In this document: positions 3,466 through 61,909 of the stretch, piece by piece
Numbering within the stretch: position 1 is the stretch's first letter
Layout of the letters: the number at the start of each line of letters is the position of its first letter
From: Okamejei kenojei
Lineage: Eukaryota
Assembly (NCBI GenBank): GCA_035221665.1
Contig: CM069141.1
Location: 15,128,001 to 15,192,000 of the forward strand
Reading direction: 5' to 3'
DNA length: 64,000 bases
Notes under the pieces: generated by a model
What the model was told of the DNA's origin: nothing
Database searches by the model: none
The model's input: the letters and a program-made list of their open reading frames with translations, nothing else
Position numbers and translations under genes: made by a program

Positions 3466-4162
3466 TAATAAATACTCGTAACCAATAAAAATATGTAGAC
3501 TGGCAATATATTTCCAAGGTGGTCTATGATTTGGAGGGGAAATTGCACATGGTGGTGTTTCCACGCATGGTCCCTTGCCATTCCTGGTGGTGGGGGCCAT
3601 GGGTGTCGGAGGTACTATTGGAATAACCTGGGCAGGTAACTGCAGTGCATTTTATACATAGTACATACTGCAACCACTCTGTGCCAGCTGTGAATGAAAT
3701 TAATACTTAGAGTTGGAGAGTACACAATCGCACTCCTGGCATGCCTTGTCGATGATGAAAAGGCCTCAGGGGGTGAATCATACACTGCAGGATACCTGGA
3801 CTCTGTCCTGATCTTGTAGCCACCGGATTCATGTGCTTGGTGCAGTGAAGTTTCTGGTCAGTGGTGGTTCCCGGAATATTGATGGTGGGACTCTCAGCAA
3901 TGGTAGTTTAGTTTTCTTTCATTTAATTTAGAGATACAGTGTGGAAACAGGCCCTTCAGTCAACCAAGTCAGCGCTGACCAGCAATCACCTGTACACTAG
4001 TTCTGTCCTGCACACTGGGGACAATTTACAGAAGCTTTGTACGTCTTTGAAATATGGGAGGAAACTGGAGCACCCTGAGAAAATCCACACGGTCACAGGG
4101 AGAACATACAAACTCCGTACAGACAGCACCTGTAGTCAGGATCAAACCCGGTCTCTGGTGCT

Positions 4163-4296
4163 TCTTCTGTCGTGTGGCGTGCACAGCCTAAAGTTGTTGG
4201 ACAACTTGTTCTATTTGATCTCCCGTTTGTGTACGTCGAGTTGATTGCATTAGTCAAAACAGGGCGGACCACGTGAAGGTTGCAATCTTCCACCCC
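4163..4296 (-). mobile_element. Ribozyme-headed short retroposon, copy 1, inserted into a V-SINE
   Basis: 12-bp TSD GTCTCTGGTGCT at 4151-4162 and 4297-4308; 126-nt body with a short GAA tail. Confidence 0.9.
4243..4296 (-). ncRNA. HDV/CPEB3-like self-cleaving ribozyme (predicted), copy 1
   Basis: Minus strand reads GGGGUGG-AA-GAUUGCA-ACC-UUCACGU-GGU-CCGCCCU-GU-UUUG-AC-UAA-UGCAAUC; P1, P2 and P3 all pair. Confidence 0.85.
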
Positions 4297-5861
4297 GTCT
4301 CTGGTGCTGTAAGGCAGAAACTCTACCCTGGCACCACTGTGTCATTAAATGTCAACGTTAAGAGTTGAATTCAATTCAAGTTTAATGTCATTGCACAGAT
4401 ACAAGTATGGGTACAACGAAATGCAGTTTAGCGCCAGTTCGTAGTAATAAGAAATATATAAGGTTTCTAGTTGGAGATGGTCATTGTCCAGCAGTGCTTC
4501 CTGTCACAACAGCCTATGCCTAAATCTTGCTGAGGTCTTGCTCTAAACAGGCATGGTGGTTTCTTTGACAATTTGCAAATGGCATTTAATATTGTACAAT
4601 TTTTAGCATGGGCAGGATTGATGAAGTTGCTGAAGATAATCGGGGCTGGGATACTGTCCGCAAGCGATGTGGACAATCGACCTCCTGCACTTGCAAAGAT
4701 CTTTCTTTGTACCAGGGGTTATTCCAATGACTAGTGTTTTCCTTTTGATGCTCACCTTCATCAGCCCACACGCTCACTCGAATGCTACAGTACCTCAGGG
4801 TCAAGAGCAGTCACTTTGAGTTTGAGTCTAGTTCATTGTCATGTGAACCGAGACACAGTGGAAAGCTTTTGTTGCGTGCTAACCAGTCAACTTTCACCCT
4901 ATCTCAGGAATCTAGTTCTTTGGTACATGTTAAAATGGCAGCTGTGACGAGGTCTGGTGATAAGTGCTTTCAGCAGACCCAAACTTAGCCTTGGTGAGTA
5001 GGTTATTTAGTACTGCTTGACACTGCTGTCTGCAAAGGCATCCATCATTTTGCTCATGAGATCGAGCATTTGGTTTGGATTAAATTTGTTGTGGTTTTTA
5101 TAAACATATACTCGGGCAATTTTCCCACATTATTAAGTATCTACCACTGTTACTGGAACAGCTTGGCTAGAGGCACAGTTATTTCTGGAGCGCTGCTCCC
5201 CAATACCGCAGCTGGGATGTTGCCTGGTCCCATAGGCTTTGCTGTAACTGGTGATCTCAGCTGTTTAGTCAGAGTCATAAAATCATACAACACAGAAAGA
5301 GGCCCTTTTGTCCCACTGAATCTATTCCAACCACCAACCACCCAATTATATTAATCCTACCCTAATTGTTATTCTCCCCCACATTTCTATCAACCATCAT
5401 GAGATTCTACCCCTCACCTCTGCACTGAGGGCAATTTGCACCAGCCAACCCACATGACCTAGGGAGGTGGGAGGAAACTAGAGCACCCAGCGCAAACCCT
5501 CGTGAACGCAGAGAGAATACGCAAACTCTACTCATCCAGCACTGGAGCTCAGGATTGAACCTGGGTCACTGGAATCTTAAGTCTAGAGACGAGGTACAGA
5601 AACCTGAAGTCCCACACGTCCAAGTCAGGCTCAGGAACAGCTACTTTCCTAAAACTATCAGGTTCGGAACCTGCACAATTCTTATCCTACCTTGAAAACG
5701 GACTACCGACCACCTCTTGCACTGCCATGCACTTGTTTTCTACTTGTCTTTTCCACTACTATAGACATGCTTTGTACTTGTGTTTTGCACCAGATTCTTT
5801 GTTTTTTTTTGGCACAGCCATTATCTTGCGGAATCTAGGCATAATTTTAGACACAAAAGAC

Positions 5862-6310: not shown

Positions 6311-7096
6311 GCATAATTTATCTGTTTGTGTGCAATGTGTGTTGTCTGAGTCTATGTGCCAGTGATGCTGCTGCAAGATTTTCATTGTAGCCGTACCTCA
6401 CATACTGTAAACTGAACTTGATTTGATGACTACAGCTCAAATGACTGCACTACAGTTCTGCCTTGTTAATCCTTGGATATTATATGTGCCACATTGAATT
6501 GGCTGGAACTTGTCTTCTGTGATGGGGAAGGAGCTAATATAGATTATTCTGGCTGCACATTAAATAATCAAGTGGGGGATTTATTATCACAGTCGATTTA
6601 ACAAAAAATCTACTGGTGGTTGGTTTTTGCATCCTAGCAAATCAAATATATATTGGATTGCAGAATGTTGCATTTATCTCAAATTGCAAATTTGAAAGTA
6701 AACAGCAGTTGCAAAACCAGATAATGCTGAAAATTTGATAATTACCCGCAAAACGATCAAAAGCATTTAATACTATGCAAATAAGAGGCAGCAGTCGCAC
6801 ATCAACATAAAATTAATAAAAATTCGATTTAAATCTGTCGCATTTGATAGCTAATTAACGATAATAAAAGCAATTCTGGAAGACAGCGATAATCACTGGA
6901 GCTGGGTGGTGAGGATTTAACTCTCGCAGTTTGCTGCATTTCTTGCTCATTCTGCAACGTGACTGACTGTGTGAAGTTCCTTGTATTTCCCGAATTTTGT
7001 GTACAAAATTCCGTTGAGTTTCCTCAATCATTTGGGCTCTTTCTGACCACTGATTCCCTCTTTGTCAATGATGCTACAGACGCCAGCTTAGGCTCA

Positions 7097-15149: not shown

Positions 15150-17850
15150 AATAGACAATAGGCAAAAGACAATAGGTGCAGGAGTAGGCCATTCAATGTG
15201 ATCATGGCTGATCATCCACAATCAGTACCCCGTTCCTGCCTTCTCCCCATATCCCGACTCCGCTATTTTTAAGAGCCCTATCTAGCTCTCTCTTGAAAGC
15301 ATCCAGAGAACCTGCATCCACCACGCTCTGAGGGAGAGAATTCCACAGACTCACCACTCTCTGTGAGAAAAAGTGTTTCCTCATCTCCGTTCTAAATGGC
15401 TTACTCCTTATTCTTAAACTGTGGCCCCTGGTTCTGGACTCCCCCAACATCGGGACATGTTTCCTGCCTCTAGCGTGTCCAAACCCGTAACAATCTTATG
15501 TGTCTCAATGAGATTGCCTCTCATCCTTCTAAAGTCCAGAGTGTACAAGCCCAGCTGCACCATTTTCTCAGCATATGACAGTCCCCCCATCCCGTGAATT
15601 AACCTTGTAAACCTACGCTGCATTCCCTCAATAGCAAGAATGTCCTTCCTCAAATTAGGAGACCAAAACTGCACACAATACTCCAGGTGTGGTCTCACTA
15701 GGGCTCTGTACGACTGCAGAAGGACCTCTTTGCTCCAATATTCGATTCCTCTTGTTATAAAGGCCAACATGCCATTCGCTTTCTTCACTGCCTGCTGTAC
15801 CTGCATGCTTACTTTCATAGACTGATGTACAAGGACCCCCAGATCCCGTTGTACTTCCCCTTTTCCCAACTTGACGCCATGAGATAGTAATCTGCCTCCT
15901 GTTTTTGCTACCAAAGTGGATAACCTCACATTTATCCACATTAAACTTCATCTGCCATGCATTTGTCCACTACCCCAACCTGTCCAAGTCACCCTGCATT
16001 CTCATAGCATCCTCCTCACAGCTCACACTGCCACCCAGCAAATTTGCTAATGTTACTTCGAATCCTTTCATCCATTGATGTATATTGTAAATAGCTGCGG
16101 TCGCAGCACCGAGCCTTGCGGTACCCCACTAGTCAACCACTTCTCTATCCATGTCAGCACTTTACCCCCAATAGCCTGTGCCCTAATTTTGCCCACTAAT
16201 CTCCTATGTGGGACCTTATCAAATGCTTTCTGAAAGTCCAGGTACACTACATCCACTGCTATCCCTTGTTGATTTTCCTACTTATATCTTCAAAAAATTC
16301 CAGAAGATTAGTCAAGCATGATTTCCCCTTCGTAAATACATGCGACTCGGGCCGATCCTGTTACTGCTATCCAAATGTTCGGCTATCTCATCTTTTATAA
16401 TTGACTTCAGCATCTTCCCCACCACCGATGTCAGGCTAACTGGTCTATAATTCCCTGTTTTCTCTCTCCCGCCTTTCTTAAAAAGTGGGATAACATTAGC
16501 TACCCTCCAATCCACAGGAAATGATCTATAGAACATTGGAATATTATCACCAATGCATCCACGATTTATAGAGCTACTTCCTTAAGTACCCTGGGATGCA
16601 GACCATCAGGCCCTGGGGATTTATCAGCCTTCAGTCCCATCAGTCTATCCAACACCTTTTCCTGCCTAATGTGGATTTCTTTCTGTTCCTCCGTCACCCC
16701 AGATCCTCTGGCCACTACTATATCAGGAAGATTGTTTGTGTCCTCCTTAGTGAAGACAGATCCAAAGTACCTGTTCAATTCATCTGCCATTTCCTTGTTT
16801 CCCATAATAAATTCACCTTTTTCAGTCTTCAAGGGTCCGGCTTTTGTCTTAACTAATTTTTTCCTCTTCACATACCTAAAGAAGCTTTTACTATCCTGCT
16901 TTATATTCTTGGCTAGCTTACCTTCGTACCTCATCTTTTCTCCCCATATTGTCTTTTTGGTTATCTTCTGTTGTTCTTCAAACATTACCCAATCCTCTTG
17001 CCTCCCGCTCATCTTTGCTACGTTGTACTTCTTCGCTTTAATTTTTATACTGTCCCTGGCGTCCCTTGTCGGCCATGGTCGTCCCTTTCTCCCCTTGGAA
17101 TCTTTCTTCCTCCTAGGAATGACCTGATCCCTTGTTCCACTGTCATCCCTGCTCATGTATCTTTCCAGTCAACTTTGGCCAGCTCCTCCCTCGTGGCTCC
17201 ATAGTCCCCTTTATTCAACTGCAACACTGACACGTCCGATCTACACTTCTCCCTCTCCAATTCTAGATTAAACCTGACCATGTTATGGTCACTGCCTCCT
17301 AATGGCTCATTAACCTCGAGGTCCATTATCAAATTTGGTTCATTACATAACACTAAATCCAGAATTGCCTTCTCCCAATACAAGCTGTTCTAAGAATCCA
17401 TCACGAAGGCACTCTACAAAGTCCCTTTCTTGGGGTCCAGTACCAACCTGATTTTCCCAACCTGCATGTTGAAATCTCCCACAACAACACTGCATTACTT
17501 TTGCTACATGCCAATTTTAACTCCTGATTCAACTTGCGCCCTATGTCCAGGCTACTGTTCGGGGGCCTGTAAATTAGTCCCACTAGGGTCTTTTTACCCT
17601 CACAATTCCTTAGTTCTATCCATACTGACTTCACATCTCCTGTTTCAATGTCACCCCTTGCAATGGACTGAATTTCATTCCTCACCAACTGGGCAACCCC
17701 ACCCCCTCTGCCCACCTGTCTGTCTTTTCGATAGGAGGTATACCCTTGAATATTCAGTTCCCAGCCCTGGCCCTCTTGCAGCCATGTCTCAGTAATTCCC
17801 ACATCACACTTGCTAGTTTCTAACTGAGCCTCAGCTCGTCCACTTTATTC
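15150..17850 (-). mobile_element. CR1-clade LINE, near-complete ORF2 (APE + RT) with frameshifts
   Basis: ORF fragments in order: [61 protein letters not shown]. Confidence 0.95.
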
Positions 17851-22836: not shown

Positions 22837-23948
22837 GTTAGTGTGTGTGTCCCGCCACAGATTTGATAGGCAAAGGGGCAAAGGGACAAAGGGACAAACT
22901 TTTTTTTCATGGAACACTGGAGATTAACGGGCGACCTGATAAAAGTATATAAAATTATGAGAGGCATCGATACATTAAACTGTCAGAATCTTTTTCCCAG
23001 AATGGAAATGTCAAAAACTAAAGAGCATGGCTTTAGGGTAAAGAAAGATACACAATACTGGAGTGTGGAGAGAAGGGATGGGTGATGTTTTGGGTCAAGA
23101 CCCTTATTTAGGGTGAGTAGGGCAAGGTTTAAAGGAGATGTGCAGGGCACGTTTTTTATACTGAGGGTGGTGGTTGCCTCGTACGTGCTGCCAGGGGTGG
23201 TGATGGCGGCAGATACGATAGGGGGTTTAAAGGCATTTATACAGGCACATAAATATGCAGGAAATGGGGGGATATGGATCAGATGCAGGCAGATTAGTTT
23301 ATCTTGGCATCATCAGCACAGACATTGTGGGCCGAAGGGCCTGTTCTGTACCTCTTCTGAAGTCCAGACACCGGGCATTCACGTCTGATGATACAGTCGC
23401 CTATAAGAAGTCCAGATACGACCTTGGTAAGGCCATCAAAAAGGCCAAAAGGTACTTCTGCTCCAATCTGGAGGATGAGACAGATGTTCGGCAGCTGTGG
23501 CGGGGCCTGAATGCGATCACTTCCTACAAGGCGAAACCAGGAGGCAGCTCGAATGTCGGCGAAGCATCACTCCCTGACGAGCTCAATAGTTTTACGCACG
23601 CTTTGATACGGAGAATACTGATGTGCCTTCCCGAGCTCCCATTCGCTGTGATGGTATTTCACTCTCAGTCACAGAGGCCGACGTCAGGAAATCCTTCAGA
23701 GGGGTGAACCCTCGAAAAGCGCCTGGACCTGATGGTATACTCGGTCGTGTTCTAAAAACCTGTGTGGACCAACTGGCTGGAGTTTTTAAGGACATTTTCA
23801 ACCTCTCACTTCTGAGGTCTGAGGTCCCCACCTGCTTTAAAAGGGCATCAATTATAGCAGTGCCCAAGAAGAGTAAGGTGACGTGCCTCAATGACTATCG
23901 ACCAGTGGCACTAACGCCTGTGGTGATGAAGTGCTTTGAGAGGTTGAT

Positions 23949-24002
23949 GGGGTGGAAGATTGCAACCTTCACGTGGTCCGCCCTGTTTCGACTAATGCAA
24001 TC
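23949..24002 (+). ncRNA. HDV/CPEB3-like self-cleaving ribozyme (predicted), copy 2
   Basis: GGGGUGG-AA-GAUUGCA-ACC-UUCACGU-GGU-CCGCCCU-GU-UUCG-AC-UAA-UGCAAUC; the putative catalytic C is at 23992. Confidence 0.87.
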
Positions 24003-24102
24003 AACTCAACGTGCACAAACAGAAGATCAAATAGAACAAGTTGTCCAACAACTTTAGGCTGTGCACGCCACACGAAAGAAGAAGAAGAAGAAGAAGAAGA
24101 AG
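23949..24102 (+). mobile_element. Ribozyme-headed short retroposon, copy 2, inserted into a Rex1 ORF
   Basis: Same 126-nt body plus (GAA)~9. It splits the host reading KCFERL|MEQINPYL; no clean TSD is visible. Confidence 0.9.
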
Positions 24103-25514
24103 GAGAAATGGAGCAAATCAACCCCTACCTCGACAAAAACCTGGACCCACTGCAGTTCGCTTACCGCCACAACAGATCAACGGTGGACGCGATCTCGCTG
24201 GCCCTCCACTCCACTCTGGACTACTTGGACAACAAAAACTCATATGTCAGGCTGTTATTCATTGATTACAGCTTGGCATTTAACACAATAATCCCCTCCA
24301 AGCTGGTTACCGAACTCGCAGAACTGGGTCTCTGCGCATCCCTCTGCAATTGGATCCTCGACTTCCTCATTCAGACCACAGTCTGTTCGTATTGGTGGAA
24401 ATGTGTCAGCCTCGATAACAATCAGCACGGGAGCACATCAAGGCTGCGTGCTCAGCCCCCTGCTGTACTCACTCTATACTCATGACTGCGTAGTCGGTCA
24501 CAGTGCGAACTCCATCATCAAGTTCGCTGACGACACCACTGTTGTGGGACGGATCACTGATGGGGATGAGTCAGAGTATAGAAGGGAGATTGATCAACTG
24601 TCCATATGGTGCCAGCACAATAACCTGGCCCTCAACACCAGCAAAACCAAGGAACTGATTGTGGACTTTGGAAGGAGTAGGATGGGGACCCACAGTCCCG
24701 TTTATATCAATGGGTCGACGGTTGAAAGGGGCAAGAGCTTCAAATTCCTGGAGGTGCACATCTCTGAAGATCTTTCCTGGTCCGAGAACACTAATGCAAT
24801 TATCAAGAAAGCACATCAGCGCCTCTACTTCCTGAAAATATTACGGAGTCGGTTTGTCAAGGAGGACTCTCTCTCATTTCTACAGGTGCACAGTAGAGAG
24901 CATGCTGGCCGGTTGCTTCGTGGCTTGGTTCGGCAACTTGAGCGCCCTGGAGAGAAAAAGACTACAAAAAGTAGTAAACACTGCCCAGTCCATCATCGGC
25001 TCTGACCTTCCTTCCATCGAGGGGTTTTACTTTGCAGTCGCTGCCTCAAAAAGGCTGGCTGCATCATCAAGGACCCATACCATCCTGGTCACACACTCAT
25101 CTCCCTGCTACCTTCAGGTAGAAGGTACAGAAGCCTGAAGACTGCAACAACCAGGTTCAGGAATAGGTACTTCCCCACAGCCATCAGGCTATTAAACCTG
25201 GCTCGGACAAAACTCTGATCATTAATAATCCATTATCTGTTATTTGCACTTCATCAGTTTATTTATTCGTGTGTGTATGTATTTATATAATGATATATGG
25301 ACACACTGATCTGTTTTGTAGTAAATGCCTACCATGTTCTGTGTGCTGAAGCAAAGCAAGAATTTCATTGTCCTATCAGGGACACATGACAATAAACTCA
25401 CTAGAACTTGACTTGTGTTCCTGAACTTGACTTGTGTTCACTAGAACTTGACTTGTGTTCACTAGAACTTGACTTGTGTTGGGTCGAAGGGCCTGTTCTA
25501 TTGACGTGTTTTAA

Positions 25515-61409: not shown

Positions 61410-61909
61410 NNNNNNNNNNNNNNNNNNNNNNNNNNNNNNNNNNNNNNNNNNNNNNNNNNNNNNNNNNNNNNNNNNNNNNNNNNNNNNNNNNNNNNNNNNN
61501 NNNNNNNNNNNNNNNNNNNNNNNNNNNNNNNNNNNNNNNNNNNNNNNNNNNNNNNNNNNNNNNNNNNNNNNNNNNNNNNNNNNNNNNNNNNNNNNNNNNN
61601 NNNNNNNNNNNNNNNNNNNNNNNNNNNNNNNNNNNNNNNNNNNNNNNNNNNNNNNNNNNNNNNNNNNNNNNNNNNNNNNNNNNNNNNNNNNNNNNNNNNN
61701 NNNNNNNNNNNNNNNNNNNNNNNNNNNNNNNNNNNNNNNNNNNNNNNNNNNNNNNNNNNNNNNNNNNNNNNNNNNNNNNNNNNNNNNNNNNNNNNNNNNN
61801 NNNNNNNNNNNNNNNNNNNNNNNNNNNNNNNNNNNNNNNNNNNNNNNNNNNNNNNNNNNNNNNNNNNNNNNNNNNNNNNNNNNNNNNNNNNNNNNNNNNN
61901 NNNNNNNNN
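61410..61909. other. Assembly gap (500 N)
   Basis: Run of exactly 500 N. Confidence 1.

Follow-up and report, generated by a model that had tools for sequence, protein, structure and literature searches.

A stretch of 64,000 nucleotides from Okamejei kenojei (GenBank assembly GCA_035221665.1, contig CM069141.1, positions 15,128,001 to 15,192,000 of the forward strand; hereafter the window) holds two copies of a 126-nt element. The element belongs to a large, dispersed family of mostly full-length copies that are flanked by target site duplications (TSDs) and end in a short GAA tail. Its first 54 nt can be drawn as a well-formed and complete minimal fold of the hepatitis delta virus (HDV)-like ribozyme type, with catalysis predicted from the sequence. 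The family is a real, high-copy retroposon, probably dependent on Vingi-type long interspersed elements (LINEs). We consider it likely, taking the whole chain together, that the element is an internally deleted, non-autonomous Vingi derivative that is released from host RNA by self-cleavage and copied in trans.

A dispersed family with a fixed 5′ start

In the assembly of 2.76 Gb, the first 25 nt of the element matched at 16,120 places, and the last 25 nt together with the tail matched at 6,821 (one mismatch allowed in either search; the reversed patterns, used as controls, gave no matches). The lower 3′ count is probably due to the 3′ pattern, which fits the end of subfamily A only and contains CpGs. 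Taking the 30 exact 3′ matches that come first by position gave a sample chosen without regard to the 5′ ends. In this sample 28 copies start at nt 1–3 of the element and two are truncated at the 5′ end. The original prediction, made from the letters of the window alone, had argued from a common first nucleotide against random LINE truncation, and the start positions in this sample support the argument.

We examined TSDs in 105 distinct full-length copies, a partly biased pool of 29 best-scoring copies, 27 selected by the 3′ end, 43 found with negated patterns, four incidental ones and the two of the window; copies cut by the end of a locus or short of either element end were excluded. A TSD score of at least 7 was reached by 85 of them vs 14 of 2,000 mismatched flank pairs, and the TSD was 11 or 12 bp long in 59 of these 85. 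The flanks show an excess of purines at position −11 (75 of 105 copies, p 3e-6) and of T at position −1, directly 5′ of the element (48 of 105, p 0.002). Thus, neither staggered 5′ ends nor a majority of copies devoid of TSD or tail, the outcomes named beforehand as fatal to the prediction, was seen.

At least two subfamilies are present, here split by a simple and imperfect rule. Subfamily A (126 nt, 87 copies) differs from its own majority sequence by 3.4% on average; the older subfamily B (128 nt, 18 copies) differs by 5.0%. The alignment has 17 recurrently variable columns, three within nt 1–54 and 14 within nt 55–127. Two still older copies (L225:1904-2038 and L180:5004-5139) are 84–87% identical to copy 2 of the window and show mixed traits of A and B; they keep a 20-codon frame ending in VVLQL and possibly represent a third, ancestral subfamily. 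In another copy (L153; G000:C2:46053976) the ribozyme part passes directly into the GAA tail, leaving ∼52 nt plus tail between a probable TSD. Split or tail-to-tail copies, some with later insertions, were observed in the regions of L048/L049 (G000:C1:8841138-8841477), L106/L071 and L107/L072.

The element is also found beyond this assembly. Runs under eight organism labels contain 70–100% of the sampled element words; 10 of the 23 run rows possibly have the same source as the window DNA, and five studies outside those still contain the element. Subfamily B is present in contigs of four runs, in which 0–3% of the records continue unlike the element. Contigs of three runs guessed to be RNA contain it as well, such contigs carrying no information on ends, strand or expression. 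Two metatranscriptome rows with fewer than five words were not counted as evidence.

The features of the two window copies are as follows (element numbering starts at the first base of the body).

4171..4296, minus strand: body of copy 1, 126 nt, subfamily A (sequence and alignment)
4243..4296, minus strand: minimal HDV-like fold of copy 1, element nt 1–54, placed by alignment to copy 2
4296 and 4253, minus strand: predicted cleavage just 5′ of 4296 and putative catalytic C at 4253 in copy 1, by alignment
4163..4170, minus strand: short GAA-type tail of copy 1, 8 nt
4297..4308, minus strand: upstream copy of the copy 1 TSD, 12 bp, perfect
4151..4162, minus strand: downstream copy of the copy 1 TSD
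4040..4345, minus strand: host repeat of copy 1, a short interspersed element (SINE) with a tRNA-like head, approximate limits
23949..24074, plus strand: body of copy 2, 126 nt, subfamily A (sequence and alignment)
23949..24002, plus strand: minimal HDV-like fold of copy 2, nt 1–54 (descriptor match)
23992..23992, plus strand: putative catalytic cytosine, element nt 44, first base of J4/2, assigned by its position in the fold
23995..24057, plus strand: relic reading frame, ATG at the J4/2–P2 boundary, 20 codons and a stop
24008..24069, plus strand: 3′ structured module, stem nt 60–69/112–121 with an inner hairpin nt 90–96/100–106
24069..24074, plus strand: terminal hexamer preceding the tail, in the form common to Vingi-type LINE ends of this genome
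24075..24102, plus strand: GAA tail of copy 2, 28 nt; a clean TSD was not found
23608..24311, plus strand: host of copy 2, a broken reverse-transcriptase frame split by the insertion

The two copies align over 126 nt with 96% identity and share their first base, as had been claimed for them, and no further match in the 64-kb window was better than E 0.87. The perfect 12-bp TSD reported for copy 1 was found again. The description of the tails as GAA repeats suits copy 2; the tail of copy 1 is short and impure. Copy 1 is inserted between the A- and B-box-like motifs of its host, which we take to be a SINE of V-SINE type. Copy 2 lies in what is presumably a Rex1-type LINE; the sole library test of the hosts gave a weak RVT_1 match in its flank (E 1.4e-5, under the curated cut-off). 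Positions 61410–61909 of the window are an assembly gap of 500 bases.

The element has no head of the kind used by RNA polymerase III (Pol III). Three simple patterns for A/B boxes, applied to both strands of copy 2, gave no match, ARAGORN found no tRNA genes in the window, and Rfam at gathering score gave no match there. The remark that tRNA-type boxes are absent was therefore correct, and the name SINE can be applied to the element as a label of size only.

The minimal HDV-like fold

Nucleotides 1–54 fit the nested double pseudoknot of HDV-like ribozymes without a mispair in P1, P2 or P3 (descriptor run on copy 2). P1 (nt 1–7/30–36, 7 bp) opens with a G1-U36 wobble and is joined through J1/2 (nt 8–9) to P2 (nt 10–16/48–54, 7 bp); P3 (nt 17–19/27–29, 3 bp) encloses L3 (nt 20–26, 7 nt). 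The 7 nt at positions 37–43 replace both the 3′ strand of P1.1 and P4, and J4/2 (nt 44–47) consists of C44 and three more bases. P1.1, as read from the sequence, would be C22-G37 plus a possible U21-U38. The P4 helix is absent, since 7 nt lead from P1 to the putative catalytic C vs 18–45 nt in the best-fitting LINE copies described below. The G at the predicted cleavage site is nt 1 of the element and the first base of P1.

None of 20,000 shuffled sequences fitted the descriptor, whose L3 pattern was written after the sequence had been seen. In 2.12 Mb of scanned strands, which include partly overlapping loci, it matched 111 times: in 105 copies of the element, at five LINE 5′ ends and at one unrelated site. 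The ribozyme, which the original prediction named without detail, fits an HDV-like fold precisely; the cleavage itself is predicted.

Variation among copies can be read against this fold. Copy 1 differs in it from copy 2 by a single C>T in the L4 loop. The three variable columns within nt 1–54 are all compatible with the fold: one lies in J1/2, one changes a G-U pair to A-U and one is the free base after the catalytic C. At nt 44 the less biased copy set has C in 29 of 33 copies, T in three and a gap in one. Neither the whole element nor its ribozyme part stood out in plain nested folding (z −0.52 to 1.08), as is expected of a pseudoknot. Covariation within the family was left unused because the copies are too young.

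Vingi-type LINEs and the origin of the element

LINEs were sought with a degenerate pattern derived from a short Vingi-type protein motif (303 matches, control 0), and protein searches widened the pattern matches to several LINE families. A terminal zinc knuckle is a trait of Vingi/Ingi and is not known as one of RTE. Six full-length copies of 3.07–3.20 kb have a single frame with the Pfam domains Exo_endo_phos (apurinic endonuclease-like, APE) and RVT_1 (reverse transcriptase, RT); RNase H was unmatched. Relatives are proteins of ∼1,000 aa with the same domains, and in 81 of 120 listed the protein ends in a zinc knuckle. The layout matches that described for Vingi, a single-frame APE and RT LINE of ∼3 kb without RNase H (PMC13708176).

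Four of these LINE families start with an HDV-like fold: when P1 is made to begin at the first base, no more than one mispair is left in the best copy of any of them, and the P4 regions measure 18–45 nt. None of 1,500 random starts fitted the LINE-type fold. In one family the core shows 84.6% identity with nt 14–39 of the element. LINE 5′ ends have the same fold type and P3/L3 as the element, and direct similarity to them amounts to these 26 nt. Four of the six full-length LINE copies have TSDs (11, 11, 11 and 13 bp; two families measured). Most LINE families examined end in a similar hexamer and a GAA tail, one having a TAA tail instead. The end of subfamily B equals that of a young LINE family over 16 nt and the end of subfamily A that of another LINE family over 15 nt, tails included. 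The shared TSD size, the tail end and the LQL motif discussed below favour Vingi as the driver; the prediction had left the choice between Vingi/Ingi and RTE.

Several LINE loci deserve separate mention. The young Vingi-type family (L228:1444-4664, plus strand; L229, minus strand; L216:2318-4651, plus strand), with 98–99.5% identity between copies, has a textbook HDV-like 5′ fold and one open stretch of 778 codons. L266–L269, known as 5′ ends only, form a divergent Vingi-like family with 92–95% identity between copies and an HDV-like 5′ fold of its own, which gave a weak Rfam HDV match (25.9 bits vs the cut-off of 50); its age is close to that of subfamily B, which makes it a candidate driver. 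Another full-length LINE (L207:86-3200) occupies the host-SINE motif in which copy 1 of the window also lies, the TSDs overlapping with an offset of 4 nt. A cluster of similar endonuclease fragments (an open frame of ∼157 aa, 36–41% to the query) comes from C25, C27, C29, C272 and C398 of G000 and suggests that part of a LINE was carried along by segmental or tandem duplications.

The reading frame within the element bears on its origin. It ends in VVLQL in 22 copies and in VVQQL in 43, copy 2 among the latter. In 11 of 18 copies of subfamily B the frame is interrupted and has only 13 codons; a functional 20-codon peptide was rejected for this reason. The earlier statement that there is no credible open reading frame is right as to coding; the frame is nevertheless informative on origin. 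Among 59 long relatives, 45 allowed the endonuclease to be placed, and in nearly all of these it starts with a hydrophobic residue followed by LQL, 7–66 residues past the first Met. On a profile built from 35 such starts, VVLQL reaches a score of 7.8 (null fraction 4e-4 per position), the highest among the 91 hexamers of the element, and it shares the frame of the ATG. This likeness suggests that nt 1–106 could be the 5′ end of a LINE from which a deletion removed nearly the whole frame. The opposite interpretation, a decayed C-terminus of a LINE protein, was found weak (top 1–2.5% of 8,242 null peptides, a near-invariant W missing), so that the N-terminal one is preferred.

A stable fold is predicted for the 3′ half (z −4.37 in a copy of subfamily B, z −2.15 in copy 2), and its stem nt 60–69/112–121 keeps at least 8 of 10 pairs in 92 of 105 copies. 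Given this stem, the true LINE-derived 3′ part may be limited to the last few bases and the tail. We put the LINE-like 3′ part at perhaps the last 6–20 nt plus tail; nt 55–106 look 5′-derived. The predicted design of a ribozyme joined to a LINE-derived 3′ recognition tail stands in its fold, with a 3′ part that is perhaps much shorter than supposed; the LINE ‘with the same ends’ was not found in the searches that follow.

The search for the parent covered listed loci and limited gap ranges; it did not reach the 3′ end in two families or the 5′ end in several. On the 3′ side negated patterns gave 392 matches, 100 of which were listed; the 30 loci taken from them, six read closely, held only subfamily B, truncations and insertions. 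On the 5′ side there were 794 matches, and a long continuation was seen by eye in none of the 100 listed. No shared long continuation of the element occurs in the contigs of the four runs mentioned above. BLAST of the element against sets of 30, 20, 58 and 12 LINE loci returned terminal matches, the 26-nt ribozyme-core match and inserted copies only. Patterns combining an anchor with an endonuclease motif across gaps of ∼51–231 nt gave one, seven and no matches, all of which continue as the short element over 80 letters; LQL followed by an endonuclease motif gave 29 matches, none intact. One candidate locus, at C6, was set aside: it looked like a truncated copy within unrelated sequence, and its neighbour was unreadable over the same stretch. 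The long LINE expected to share the first 54 and last ∼60 nt of the element did not emerge from these searches.

The steps that we envisage are as follows. A Vingi-type LINE would have been internally deleted, so that only its first ∼106 nt (ribozyme, start codon and first 20 codons) and a minute 3′ end carrying the GAA tail were left. A copy would be transcribed within a host read-through RNA made by RNA polymerase II (Pol II), as we infer from the absence of Pol III boxes. The minimal ribozyme, whose fold is given by the sequence, would then cut just 5′ of G1, so that every such RNA would gain an identical 5′ end, and the pseudoknot would probably shield that end. A Vingi endonuclease/reverse transcriptase acting in trans would bind the 3′ end and prime at the nick, aided by one or two purines matching the tail. 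The product of the last step, a full-length copy with a TSD of 11–12 bp, is what the genome contains. With a borrowed promoter and a self-made 5′ end, any intact copy in a transcribed region could serve as a source. The direct parent would be lost, rare or unseen, and it is probably related Vingi families that drive the element now or did so in the past. Read-through transcription, self-cleavage and target-primed reverse transcription are assumed here by analogy with R2, L1Tc and RTE (PMC3414825, PMC6765202 and PMC4035085), and short internally deleted elements (SIDEs) and bipartite non-autonomous LINEs offer precedents (PMC3414825 and PMC5786205).

A number of observations weigh against this scheme. 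On the side of the ribozyme, the three copies with T at nt 44 (of 33) have lost the catalytic-position C, and three of 29 subfamily A copies carry a P3-breaking change at nt 29. Rfam was silent on the element and on three loci with its 5′ end, even at E 10. In the Agam-2 ribozyme J1/2 linkers of 0–1 nt were nearly inactive and one of 3 nt was slow (PMC4908430); the J1/2 of the element, at only 2 nt, falls between the near-dead and the slow lengths. Its P1.1 has one Watson–Crick pair plus U-U vs two pairs in the listed theta ribozymes of phages (see below), although HDV-like P1.1 may consist of one or two pairs (PMC4908430). On the side of the LINEs, no search of the loci and gap ranges given above found a parent. 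The Vingi label follows from architecture and motifs, no labelled reference being among the 120 relatives listed and the RTE layout being similar. Other copies of the four families with an HDV-like start fit the fold less well, the 5′ end of a sixth family misfits it, and two of the six full-length LINE copies have no usable TSD. The ages of the LINEs (98–99.5% alike in the young family, ∼79–95% in others) do not clearly match that of subfamily A (3.4%). As for the relic frame, the VVLQL score corresponds to p ∼0.04 over 91 positions, is uncorrected for frame and was noticed post hoc; it is lower than 33 of the 35 true starts, the commoner VVQQL scores lower still, and the motif overlaps a hairpin that could itself shape the sequence.

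A hybrid or rebuilt origin is a possible alternative, to which we give clearly less credit. The 5′ 106 nt would come from one extinct Vingi, and the 3′ end would combine a fold-back copy of nt 60–69 with a hexamer and tail taken from or adapted to other Vingi families; like the R2/R1 hybrid SIDEs (PMC3414825), the element would in that case travel with several LINEs as a promiscuous passenger, with its origin altered and its cleavage step unchanged. No LINE examined shares more than 15–16 terminal nt with it, tail included, nt 112–121 are complementary to nt 60–69, and the ends of subfamilies A and B resemble those of two different LINE families, all of which would suit a hybrid. In contrast, a stop codon lies 17 nt before the tail, within the spacing of 7–27 nt observed at the LINE ends of this genome, and two LINE families are known by their 5′ ends only, so that a single parent may exist among them.

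It is rather unlikely that the ribozyme is slow or dead, that an internal promoter for Pol II within the first ∼60 nt, comparable to Pr77, instead sets the 5′ end of a still Vingi-copied element, and that the pseudoknot is retained for end protection or protein binding. Pr77 of trypanosomes is described as both promoter and ribozyme (PMC3383444), the HDV-like fold of R2 templates protects them in a cap-like manner (PMC13708176), and the short J1/2 and weak P1.1 would agree with poor cleavage. However, the first base of the element coincides exactly with the predicted cleavage site, both subfamilies preserve the C at the catalytic position and the pattern of J4/2, with variation at the base that follows this C, and a Watson–Crick pair over U-U in P1.1 is known from a fast phage ribozyme (PMC13635239).

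Derivation from, and mobilization by, an RTE-clade LINE seems very improbable. RTE elements, with a single APE and RT frame, 5′ HDV-like ribozymes and bipartite derivatives, are the best-known source of ribozyme-headed bipartite elements (PMC5786205), and our LINE survey of this genome was aimed at Vingi-type families. Yet the LQL end, hexamer, tail, TSD size and P3/L3 of the element match LINEs whose relatives mostly end in the zinc knuckle, among them the LINE that resembles its nt 14–39 core.

Known elements and phage ribozymes

The combination of a ribozyme with a LINE tail is already known; the element can be seen as a known strategy with an unusual catalytic head. R2 SIDEs and R2/R1 hybrid SIDEs of Drosophila are likewise non-autonomous, join a 5′ HDV-like ribozyme to a LINE 3′ end, are co-transcribed with their surroundings and are moved in trans (PMC3414825). 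SIDEs are confined to 28S rDNA and rare, in contrast to the dispersed element with its more than 16,000 copies, and the element further differs from them in its P4-less ribozyme and in its likely partner, which is APE-type (Vingi-like) where theirs is R2/R1. RIME, NARTc and SIDER derive from the Ingi/L1Tc group, to which Vingi is sister; they are short and keep a 5′ hallmark with an HDV-like ribozyme (PMC4035085 and PMC5786205); the original prediction was right in citing comparable elements of trypanosomes. These are protist elements, likened here by description and not by Pr77 sequence, whereas the present one is an animal element that is not known to have promoter activity and for which no parent sharing both ends was found. 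The bipartite Vingi/RTE elements (Vingi-1_EE derivatives, Bov-A and RTESINE) consist only of the 5′ and 3′ parts of a single-ORF (open reading frame) LINE and have no Pol III head (PMC5786205). With its fixed 5′ end, simple-repeat tail, TSD and lack of coding capacity, the element very likely belongs among them. Pol III SINEs with tRNA, 7SL or 5S heads are similarly short, non-coding, TSD-flanked and numerous, with a LINE-like tail; they have an A/B box or tRNA head and the element has neither.

A closer likeness in the fold itself is to theta ribozymes of gut phages, listed by segment in supplementary file 6 of PMC10879173. The theta row 1782 agrees with the element in J1/2, P3, L3, the six-base loop and J4/2; the element has one A fewer after P1, and in the row this extra A completes the second P1.1 pair. 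The six-base loop is present in 317 of about 7,700 theta rows. The element and a theta subclass share the lack of P4, a P2 of 7 bp and a 2-nt J1/2, and J1/2 linkers of 1–3 nt are the rule among the theta rows examined. Four examples of the class are reported as active in vitro. With one P1.1 pair and U-U vs two pairs in the rows, the element probably fails the published theta descriptor, judged by the rows and not by the descriptor itself.

Shrinkage of a Vingi ribozyme that converged on the theta core while staying active is the explanation we find reasonably probable. Theta ribozymes occur in a phage context, often at the 3′ end of a tRNA, and the ribozyme of the element is the 5′ end of an animal retroposon. 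No tRNA, the common neighbour in the phage context, was found anywhere in the window, and the 28-nt core of the element had no exact match in viral contigs. In PMC10879173 nearly 99% of the matches were assigned to phages, and none was eukaryotic in a set of human, mouse and protist genomes; a further report (10.1101/2023.06.13.544163) likewise has minimal HDV-like forms nearly confined to phages after searches of human, mouse and protist genomes. An active theta-type ribozyme by descent is very unlikely in our view; a 54-nt catalytic module would then have crossed between bacteriophages and a LINE lineage of animals, would have been amplified more than 16,000 times and would now cut host pre-mRNAs wherever it lies in sense. 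The reading of the copies as non-mobile, i.e. random 3′ LINE fragments or an assembly artefact, could appeal to the two truncated copies and to copy 2 with its unclear TSD, and we dismiss it: it is refuted by the fixed 5′ ends, by TSDs that abut nt 1 in most copies and by 16,120 intact 5′ ends, and at least two subfamilies and the occurrence in contigs of other runs also contradict it.

The full-text literature, searched with Repbase, Dfam and patents outside the scope, gave no report of a Vingi ribozyme and none of a P4-less HDV-like ribozyme in an animal retroposon. A high-copy minimal HDV-like ribozyme of animals would widen a class reported almost only from gut phages and would show that descriptor searches demanding a two-pair P1.1 can miss such ribozymes. 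A gene-insertion platform based on Vingi is under development, and its RNAs retain the native 5′ untranslated region (UTR) (PMC13708176); the HDV-like folds on four Vingi-type families offer a testable reason for the importance of that 5′ UTR. An element of 126 nt, full-length in more than 90% of the 3′-selected sample, would be a natural minimal template for the 5′ and 3′ signals needed by the Vingi protein. The genome would also contain thousands of potential self-cleavage sites, and selection against such ribozymes in introns is testable through strand bias.

At several unlinked loci a second repeat is inserted at one and the same point within the short element, with ∼11–13 nt duplicated around nt 78–90 (L072, L154, L156 and L157, and L155, in which the left half is missing; genome places C1:59225099, C2:21125762, C4:102058595, C5:36666554 and C2:58218628). 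The core of this repeat resembles the minimal hammerhead of Penelope-like elements. The shared insertion point suggests a target preference of the second repeat, and two ribozyme types would thus be nested in one unit.

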